A DNA stretch of 64,000 nt, taken from sequence record OQ067374.1, one strand, 5' to 3'. Positions 39,527-40,386 of the stretch are shown here, one piece after another. The translations under genes were made by a program, and so were the position numbers. Below the pieces are notes generated by a model. It made no database searches. It was not told the origin of the DNA and worked only from the letters and a program-made list of their open reading frames with translations. The DNA comes from Escherichia phage a20. Position 1 is the first letter of the stretch; every line of letters starts with the position of its first letter.

Positions 39527-39555
39527 CAAAAAGCCCCAACCTTTCGGAAGGGGCT
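39527..39555 (-). terminator. Rho-independent terminator (repeat family)
   Basis: Minus-strand AGCCCCUUCCGAAAGUUGGGGCU followed by UUUUU. Confidence 0.55.
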
Positions 39556-39599
39556 AAGCCTTGCGGCAACCTTGTCGGGGTTTCCACCTGCTAAGGCAA

Positions 39600-39860
39600 G
39601 TGTTTGTACGAAACGCCGGGATTCGAACCCGGTTATTAAGCAGTTGACGCTACTCAATATTTTTAAAAGGCCATATCTCGACCATATCCGAACGTTCCGT
39701 CAAAAACGCTACTCGGCTTACGGCAAAGATATTTCCTCGAATCGATAATTCTGTGCGCCGTTTCTGCTGTGATGTAAGGGGATATTAACAAATCGTAAAG
39801 ATTTATTAAGACCAGTCCTTACTCAGGGAACATCAGTCCGACGACTTACCGGTAGCGACC
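39600..39860 (-). ncRNA. Candidate stable small RNA / tRNA-like locus
   Basis: 385-bp ORF-free gap next to tRNA cluster; CCGGGUUCGAAUCCCGG T-arm motif at 39616-39632; no full cloverleaf found. Confidence 0.3.
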
Positions 39861-39867
39861 CGGCTTC

Positions 39868-40230: not shown

Positions 40231-40306
40231 TGGTCGAGACAGAAGGATTCTAACCTTCAACCTACGGATTAGAAGTCCGTTGCTCCATACAATTGAGCTA
40301 TGCCTC
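40231..40306 (-). tRNA. tRNA-Arg (anticodon UCU), CCA encoded
   Basis: Hand-folded cloverleaf: acceptor CGAGGCA/TGTCTCG, anticodon stem ACGGA/TCCGT, loop CTTCTAA, T-arm GAAGG-TTAGAAT-CCTTC. Confidence 0.8.
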
Positions 40307-40312
40307 GAATAT

Positions 40313-40386
40313 ATGACCCAGACCAGATTCGAACTGGTAACCTTTCCCTTATGAGGGGACTGCTGCTAACCATTGAGCTACAGGGC
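40313..40386 (-). tRNA. tRNA with anticodon CAU (Met or Ile2), CCA not encoded
   Basis: Hand-folded: T-arm ACCAG-TTCGAAT-CTGGT, anticodon loop CTCATAA, acceptor with one U-U mismatch and one G-U. Confidence 0.65.

Follow-up and report, generated by a model that had tools for sequence, protein, structure and literature searches.

Probable orthologues of the T4 stable RNAs rnaD and rnaC beside the tRNA genes of Escherichia phage a20, with structures predicted from covariation

The genes of two stable RNAs of bacteriophage T4, rnaC (species 1 RNA) and rnaD (species 2 RNA), have been known since the 1970s, and their products count among the oldest orphan RNAs of molecular biology. In the T4 reference genome they are annotated directly downstream of tRNA-Arg, rnaD at 71053-71171 and rnaC at 70908-71046. 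Here we describe their very probable counterparts in Escherichia phage a20 (OQ067374.1), where they occupy a block without long open reading frames (ORFs) at 39,556-39,867 of the 64,000-nucleotide stretch of T4-like phage DNA that was analyzed (the window). In T4, a primary transcript of ~1.75 kb spans the whole tRNA cluster and ends after the species I gene, and both RNAs are thought to be cut from it (PMC2330249). A northern blot validated RNAC, and the same work placed both RNAC and RNAD among the late RNAs (PMC9697503). Their function was stated as unknown in a 2010 review (PMC3014915), in a 2022 omics paper (PMC9697503) and again in a 2025 paper (PMC12685909).

A first reading of the a20 block, made from its sequence alone, had proposed that it might hold the counterpart of the two T4 RNAs or else a degenerate tRNA. 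The first proposal was borne out by end-to-end alignment with T4 rnaD and rnaC. The rnaC sequences share 97% mean column identity over their full length with no gaps inside the RNA (alignment A1), and the rnaD sequences share 89% identity, also over the full length (alignment A2), the differences being concentrated in the stem tip and the core outside the apical hairpin being nearly invariant. The record of ATK47, a 98% identical sister phage, carries the annotation “rnaC; small stable RNA; species 1 RNA” at this place inside the block. Together with its flanks, the block is 100% identical to Escherichia phage BEU50 (Mosigvirus-like) and 98-99% identical to Mosigvirus and other T-even-type records, and it is present in 765 to 801 (~800) phage records. 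The RNAs are not host-derived: searches of 5,426 complete E. coli genomes and of a plasmid collection yielded no homologue. A covariance model of the rnaC family (R1) matched the window once (39600-39748, 166.7 bits); the model discriminates well, as members score at least 119 bits and ordinary tRNAs at most 36 bits. Both RNAs are also predicted to fold stably, with minimum free energies (MFE) of -48.8 kcal/mol for rnaC (z = -4.07) and -36.7 kcal/mol for rnaD (z = -3.02), and compensatory base changes were observed in nearly every helix of the two. Taking identity, outline of biogenesis and structure together, we conclude with high confidence that the block encodes the Mosigvirus orthologues of T4 rnaD and rnaC. 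Four rival explanations are weighed below. From most to least likely, they take the RNAs as cis-acting parts of the tRNA operon, as small RNAs that act by base-pairing, as a decayed tRNA gene or as coding sequence for small proteins.

The structure of rnaC was derived by comparison of 28 distinct sequences from Tequatro-, Mosig-, Karam-, Winkler-, Teguna-, Gelderland-, Kanagawa- and Mosugukvirus, from the Marfavirus F48 family and from uncultivated viral contigs. Alignment A3 comprises the alignable group (group 1, 18 sequences) and alignment A5 comprises 19 sequences from all lineages. Across about ten genera the length between fixed end motifs is held at 148-151 nt, even where the middle third cannot be aligned. 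A model of five stems and one loop-loop interaction pairs 99.3% of the cells of A3, with double changes at 17 of its 40 pairs; none of 500 shuffles did as well, and sliding the partner columns lowered pairing to 33-44%. When all lineages were considered (A5), the acceptor stem, P1b, P5, the T-arm and the loop-loop interaction together showed 16 pairs with double changes. The MFE folds of the a20, TG1, AS6, Melville and PM2 RNAs independently yielded an identical four-way junction (coordinates in Table 1).

Within this junction the T-arm is the element that the sequence-only reading had recognized. It is present as described (CCGGGTTCGAATCCCGG) and is unique in the window even when two mismatches are allowed, with no match in 100 shuffles. 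That reading could not fold D and anticodon arms, and none exist in rnaC: their place is taken by a long arm and a kissing hairpin. In the long arm P2 and P3 covary, six pairs of the P2-to-P4a helix being changed on both sides, and P4 is invariant in group 1. The apical loop L4 contains a segment, UUGACG (39698-39703), that is exactly complementary to CGUCAA of loop L5, giving a 6-bp loop-loop kiss. Two independent compensatory changes were found in the kiss on A5, at pair 49-106 (AU in 15 sequences, GC in 4) and at pair 50-105 (CG in 17, UA in 2), and the variants read UUGAUG/CAUCAA in the Tegunavirus lineage and UUGGCG/CGCCAA in the F48 lineage. Covariation thus shows rnaC, as modelled here, to be a four-way-junction RNA in which an irregular arm of 24 bp and an 8-bp hairpin, locked together by the kiss, replace the D and anticodon arms, and in which the acceptor stem is coaxial with a canonical T-arm.

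Two further segments show complementarity around the kiss. The divergent rnaC group has a second segment just 5' of GGCC (GUUGACG in PEi26, AUUGGCC in F48) that is also complementary to L5 and covaries, so that in this group the partner of L5 is ambiguous, being either L4 or that segment. The 3' tail of rnaC, CGUACAAA (39603-39608), is a near copy of the L5 sequence CGUCAA (39644-39649). It may pair with L4 in the unprocessed precursor, tolerating lineage changes by wobble, and so form an alternative fold specific to the precursor. Pairing of the 5' tail of rnaC with its own T-loop, and of a loop of rnaD with the UAGCG repeats of rnaC, were also considered and were dropped as not conserved across lineages. 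Two smaller motifs noted earlier are present as well: the palindrome GAACGTTC at 39690-39697 and, with a slight correction of its sites to 39647-39655 and 39706-39714, the 9-nt direct repeat GAGTAGCGT.

The pairing of the acceptor-like stem had to be revised. The segment CGTTTCG does lie directly after the T-arm, and CGGAACG, which had been proposed as its partner 85 nt upstream, is present at 39693-39699. The proposed pairing failed in comparison: none of its pairs is changed on both sides, one position fails to pair in 8 of the 18 sequences, TG1 disrupts three pairs and the divergent group lacks the complementarity. CGGAACG is actually part of loop L4 and of the P4b stem. A 12-bp extension of the same pairing was ruled out by the comparative counts and the divergent lineages. 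On the comparative evidence, the true partner of CGUUUCG is the 5' end of rnaC itself, CGAUUCG. On A5, pair 7-142 is GC in 14 sequences, AU in 4 and GU in 1, and pair 5-144 is CG in 18 and AU in 1. In tRNA numbering, position 3-70 is A-U in the T4-type phages, G-C in most others and G.U in PM2, and position 1-72 is C-G except in PM2, where it is A-U. Two central U.U mismatches are replaced by U-A and C-G in Tegunavirus and by U-A and U-A in PM2, giving perfect 7-bp stems. The ends of T4 rnaC, annotated from RNA sequencing, sit just outside this stem, by 1 nt on its 5' side and by 2 nt on its 3' side, as expected from processing back to a terminal helix. The stem is always followed by U and then by ACA (T4, a20, Karamvirus), UCA (Tegunavirus) or CCA (F48 family, PM2), and we read the U-ACA of a20, from this series, as a degenerate CCA end. 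PM2 combines its encoded U-CCA with G3.U70, and the F48 family also encodes a full U-CCA.

The fold places rnaC close to tRNA, and one may ask if it is a tRNA pseudogene in decay, with rnaD as a non-functional spacer. ARAGORN with default settings and Rfam at its gathering thresholds made no call in the block and found just the two real tRNAs. With Rfam relaxed to E <= 10, the best match in the block was tRNA-Sec (16.6 bits, E = 3.4), which, like a match to isrK, is at chance level. This silence arises because no family exists for these RNAs in Rfam 15. The lack of a covariance-model hit, which the sequence-only reading had named as evidence against itself, was indeed what Rfam returned, but for the same reason it is too strict a measure. 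At a lowered threshold ARAGORN drew a poor 92-nt “tRNA-?(Lys|Stop)” with non-canonical D and anticodon stems and the unsupported acceptor pairing discussed above. A 1-nt deletion in phage G4507 raises this drawing above the default threshold, and GenBank lists it there as tRNA-Lys(ttt), the one record that labels rnaC in this way. The 94-nt feature (NC_054919; 1367-1460 of the examined stretch) corresponds to the 3' two-thirds of rnaC. These calls and the degenerate CCA end are what a pseudogene would predict. Against them stand the 89-97% identity to T4 where the flanking gene content differs, the constancy of length over about ten genera and the stable accumulation demonstrated for T4 (PMC9697503). 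Compensatory changes moreover keep helices that no tRNA has, as well as the tertiary kiss, and covariation so strongly disfavors decay that we hold a pseudogene to be very improbable. Of the earlier idea of a degenerate tRNA, the tRNA-likeness therefore stands, through the T-arm and the covarying acceptor stem, and the decay does not: rnaC appears to be a conserved tRNA mimic. Its likeness, judged from the predicted structure, lies in the “top half” (a minihelix of 7 + 5 bp, the T-loop and the NCA end) and in the four-way junction.

Other functions of a tRNA-like RNA were sought in particular segments of rnaC. An ORF encoding a tmRNA-like (transfer-messenger RNA) tag and ending at the conserved UAA before the T-arm was rejected, as this stretch forms the 3' side of the covarying helix P5 and the frame is interrupted in PM2. 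The joiner sequence CUUUUAA was likewise considered as a copy of the anticodon loop of tRNA-Lys, and so as a possible decoy for the anticodon nuclease PrrC, and was rejected: the triplet varies freely between phages, and the segment is a strand of the junction instead of the loop of a hairpin.

For rnaD, 18 distinct sequences were aligned (A4). The resulting model pairs 98.3% of the cells across these homologues and has seven pairs with double changes. After the 5' hairpin S1 comes a long stem that begins with the closing helix S2 and continues with S3 and S4. Three pair types, U-A, A-U and G-C, are found at 43-115, and S2 stops 1 nt before the 3' end known from T4. Invariant unpaired motifs are GACUGA, opposite GAAA, and UUCCCUGA. 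The tip of the stem occurs in three versions (Table 1) and looks like a swappable module. On the strength of covariation, rnaD can thus be modelled as a 5' hairpin followed by a long irregular stem with a swappable tip. This RNA has no T-arm and is not tRNA-like. Its mosaic tip would fit a surface under diversifying pressure.

Table 1. Features of the rnaD/rnaC locus of phage a20, in 5' to 3' order along the minus strand
Feature	Positions in the window	Strand	Basis or remark
tRNA-Met(CAU)	40387-40314	minus	ARAGORN and Rfam
tRNA-Arg(UCU)	40307-40231	minus	ARAGORN and Rfam
114-aa ORF, phrog_3355, unknown function	40212-39868	minus	between tRNA-Arg and rnaD
rnaD (T4 species 2 RNA) orthologue, 120 nt	39871 to 39752	minus	ends mapped by homology to T4 71053-71171
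rnaD 5' hairpin S1, 5 bp, invariant 7-nt loop GUCGCUA	39848-39864	minus	pairs 11-27 (AU/GC/GU) and 13-25 (CG/AU) covary
rnaD apical hairpin	39779-39817 (A4 columns 59-101)	minus	three unrelated versions among phages on a core conserved at >90%
rnaD closing helix S2, 3' strand CGGCGCAC, 7 bp, one bulged C	39753-39760, pairing with 39839-39845	minus	RNAalifold and pair counts, 100% paired
rnaD/rnaC spacer GAAUUA, 6 nt, A/U-rich	39746-39751	minus	spacing identical in T4
rnaC (T4 species 1 RNA) orthologue, 139 nt	39745 to 39607	minus	ends mapped by homology to T4 70908-71046
rnaC acceptor-like stem, 5' strand CGAUUCG	39744-39738	minus	MFE fold and covariation
rnaC long arm P1b-P2-P3-P4a-P4b with apical loop L4 UUUGACGG (39697-39704)	39737-39668	minus	covariation
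rnaC joiner J, A-rich single strand UUUAAAAAUA	39667-39658	minus	unpaired in MFE fold; 1-3 variable nucleotides among phages
rnaC hairpin P5, 8 bp, with 6-nt loop L5 CGUCAA (39644-39649)	39657-39636	minus	8/8 pairs changed on both sides
rnaC UAA spacer	between P5 and T-arm	minus	
rnaC T-arm CCGGG UUCGAAU CCCGG	39632-39616	minus	two stem pairs covary: GC/UA at 121-133, CG/UA at 120-134
rnaC acceptor-like stem, 3' strand CGUUUCG, then U39608, A39607 (mature 3' end in T4) and CAAA	39609-39615	minus	MFE fold and covariation
3' trailer between rnaC and terminator, conserved	39556-39606	minus	sequence kept in T4 and JS98
Intrinsic terminator of the tRNA/rnaD/rnaC unit: hairpin GCCCCUUCC-GAAA-GGUUGGGGC, then UUUUU	39527-39555	minus	fold

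All genes around the block lie on the minus strand, in the order tRNA-Met, tRNA-Arg, 114-aa ORF, rnaD, rnaC, trailer and terminator, followed by a gene at 39482-39018. The surroundings described in the sequence-only reading were confirmed, namely the neighboring ORF, the tRNA genes, of which two lie just upstream, and a terminator that folds as expected and runs into UUUUU. A simple scan for the terminator consensus did not pick up this hairpin because its stem carries two U.U mismatches; terminators are annotated at the equivalent site in the ATK47 and G4507 records. The trailer, of ~50 nt (ACACUUGCCUUAGCAGGUGGAAACCCCGACAAGG...), has a fold z-score of -2.1. In JS98 it lies directly 3' of rnaD (~1625-1690 of the stretch examined there) because rnaC is absent. 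At the other end of the block, the TAA stop of the phrog_3355 ORF (39870-39868) falls inside the homology-mapped 5' end of rnaD (39871); T4 has just 1 nt between tRNA-Arg and rnaD.

The block was also confirmed to be free of ORFs of at least 60 aa over its whole length (39556-39867), the longest being one of 58 aa on the plus strand (39572-39748). That this or another frame in the block encodes a small protein is the least probable of the explanations, and we consider it next to negligible. Many phage records do place “hypothetical protein” coding sequences over the block, but no frame is conserved: the longest open frame switches strand and phase among homologues and reaches just 34 aa in T4. 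Homologues also differ by indels of 1 to 2 nt, and the substitutions track base-pairing, not codons. From these patterns, the “hypothetical protein” and tRNA-Lys labels over rnaC and rnaD look like mis-annotations. The present assignment corrects the record, as most GenBank entries leave the block blank, overlay spurious ORFs or, in one case, call a tRNA-Lys.

To what extent the two RNAs serve the operon in which they lie can be judged from their gene order in other phages. In both T4 and a20 they close the tRNA unit on its 3' side, with the terminator next in line, the spacers to neighboring tRNAs or RNAs measure just ~6-7 nt, and RNase III and RNase P take part in T4 tRNA maturation, as indicated in PMC11143913 and by references cited in PMC4810235. 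All this would be expected if rnaC and rnaD worked in cis on the processing or stability of the tRNA operon. As structured 3'-terminal elements they would protect the polycistronic precursor against exonucleases entering from the 3' end, or direct cleavage by RNase P, E or III, and would persist as stable by-products with no function in trans. The positions found elsewhere make this explanation unlikely. In Karam- and Gelderlandvirus rnaC lies in mid-array, between tRNA-Trp and tRNA-Gly with gaps of just 6-7 nt, and in Teguna-, Winkler- and Mosugukvirus it lies before tRNA-Trp. It has no adjacent annotated tRNA in PEi26 and no immediately adjacent one in F48-type phages. The two RNAs also occur independently, with rnaC but not rnaD in Karam-, Gelderland-, Teguna-, Winkler- and Kanagawavirus and in Marfavirus, and rnaD but not rnaC in Dhakavirus and one phage of the Vequintavirinae. 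The varied slots and independent occurrence argue against a pure 3'-cap role for one operon. The unpaired loops, the kiss and the length of 148-151 nt are, in addition, conserved far beyond the needs of a protective hairpin, and a point mutation in rnaD alters host-specific virulence, as described below. Judging from gene order, the placement of rnaC and rnaD fits self-contained RNA genes that would use the tRNA-processing machinery.

The Vequintavirinae phage, A5-4, carries a full-length rnaD-like RNA directly after tRNA-Tyr (1499-1620 of the examined stretch) that is 87% identical to Dhakavirus rnaD and retains the helices through compensatory changes; the same record holds a second, partial match. 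That a Dhakavirus-type rnaD occurs in another subfamily indicates that the RNA gene was transferred laterally as one unit. To reach remoter relatives, viral contigs were scanned with two patterns; the hits were largely terminase genes or coincidental, and a single new rnaC was gained.

By analogy with T4, the a20 rnaD and rnaC would be transcribed as the tail of the minus-strand tRNA unit and would accumulate as stable RNAs. Host enzymes of tRNA maturation would excise both: an endonuclease may act within the A/U-rich spacers, the foot of the rnaC acceptor stem may be cleaved by RNase P or an activity like it, and trimming by 3' exonucleases may proceed as far as the terminal helices.

What the mature RNAs do can be proposed with less assurance. 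Our tentative proposal, which we rate as possible though well short of probable, is that rnaC and rnaD are stable RNAs acting in trans by binding host or phage proteins, rnaC as a tRNA mimic that cannot be charged and rnaD with a partner specific to the host strain. In this scheme rnaC would present its acceptor/T-arm “top half” to a factor that recognizes tRNA. The features behind the non-chargeable reading are the A at position 74 in place of C and the lack of an anticodon. For its part, rnaD would act on a factor specific to the host strain, possibly one of a defence system. In the T4-like phage BW1, a single convergent single-nucleotide polymorphism (SNP) in rnaD raised virulence on ECOR34 from 0.17 to 0.98 (relative bacterial growth score) in 3/3 lines (PMC12685909). 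This result, the sole functional genetics encountered here, is in line with the proposal.

The two RNAs could instead be regulatory small RNAs that pair with host or phage mRNAs through conserved single strands, namely the A-rich joiner of rnaC or the loops of rnaD. Both RNAs do have conserved unpaired segments, and reviews and omics papers speak loosely of small or regulatory RNAs (PMC9697503, PMC3014915). The one long single strand of rnaC, however, varies in sequence and length among phages, no target is known, and according to the 2010 review no trans-acting regulatory RNA of T4 had been characterized (PMC3014915). The overall architecture of both is that of compact structured RNAs, and we regard regulation by base-pairing as improbable.

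If the protein-binding proposal is taken one step further, the tRNA-derived, non-chargeable rnaC and the rnaD with its rapidly swapped tip would be host-range or counter-defence RNAs. They would titrate host factors that differ between strains, for example toxins directed at tRNA or defence systems that sense RNA, or would be sensed by such factors. This is a speculative extension that we think rather unlikely to hold in full. If true, it would explain why the RNAs are dispensable in laboratory strains despite their conservation among T4-like phages, and why one mutation in rnaD opened ECOR34 to the phage.

Several points weigh against the reading of the block as a whole or against its functional part. 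To our knowledge, the tRNA-mimic idea has no direct support, and we know of no partner. Deletions of the whole T4 tRNA region are viable on laboratory hosts, and any function of rnaC or rnaD would therefore be accessory. The placement of the BW1 SNP on rnaD is that of the authors of the study (PMC12685909) and is approximate. The ends of rnaD and rnaC in a20 were transferred from T4 by homology and are to be taken as predicted. An ORF lies between tRNA-Arg and rnaD, its stop codon overlapping the rnaD 5' end, and processing may therefore differ from that in T4. Finally, the acceptor stem of rnaC has two U.U mismatches in most members, and in LC53 and L133 (Winklervirus-type) the T-loop UUCGAAU is replaced by UGCAUCC and UGCAUGC, respectively, with the T-stem kept.

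The genes themselves are the already known T4 species 1 and species 2 RNAs, and their presence in another T4-like phage is routine. What is added is a corrected anatomy, which for rnaC comprises the acceptor partner, the degenerate CCA and the kiss and for rnaD its overall architecture, together with the view of rnaC as a conserved tRNA mimic rather than a decayed tRNA and the flagging of widespread mis-annotation. The comparative structures provide handles for mutagenesis and for the hunt for partners: the acceptor stem, the CCA-like end, the L4/L5 kiss and the modular rnaD tip. The convergent rnaD SNP of 2025 also suggests a host-specific virulence phenotype that can be tested (PMC12685909).

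Compared with T4, then, a20 has the same order of rnaD and rnaC, the same 6-nt spacer, 3' trailer and terminator and the same position downstream of tRNA-Arg, with rnaC closing the tRNA transcription unit ahead of the terminator. It differs in the 114-aa phrog_3355 ORF inserted between tRNA-Arg and rnaD. In T4 and JS98 rnaD starts directly after tRNA-Arg and in a20 it does not, a difference of context that leaves the RNA itself unaffected. The 3' end of rnaD, GCGC-A-CC(A) in T4, is CACA in a20, and the stem-tip sequence differs. With canonical tRNA (RF00005) rnaC shares a 7-bp acceptor stem continuous with a 5-bp T-stem, the UUCGAAU T-loop, the four-way junction, a discriminator-like U with NCA after it (in the F48 family and PM2 a complete CCA) and membership of tRNA gene arrays. 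Unlike tRNA, it has no D-arm, anticodon arm or anticodon, is 139 nt long, carries the two U.U acceptor mismatches and ends in ACA instead of CCA. It is like tmRNA in setting an acceptor/T-arm minihelix on a long helix in place of the anticodon arm, and its 5' segment GAUUCGAGG resembles what we take to be the D-loop analogue of tmRNA in E. coli ssrA, GGAUUCGACGG. It is unlike tmRNA in having no G3.U70 except in PM2 (A-U in a20), mostly no CCA, no tag reading frame and no tmRNA-type pseudoknots, and the tmRNA search of ARAGORN and that of Rfam were negative in the block. The bacterial Y RNA-like YrlA, viral tRNA-like structures and mascRNA are stable non-coding RNAs whose tRNA-like module is recognized by tRNA-processing or tRNA-modifying enzymes. 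From these rnaC is set apart by its kissing-arm architecture, by the lack of sequence or covariance-model similarity and by a context without rsr (Ro), the sole weak Rfam match to YrlA in the searched stretch (14.7 bits) falling on the real tRNAs at 40282-40342, outside the block. By analogy it would resemble YrlA and the other processed tRNA mimics in concept only, as a stable RNA built around a tRNA-like module.

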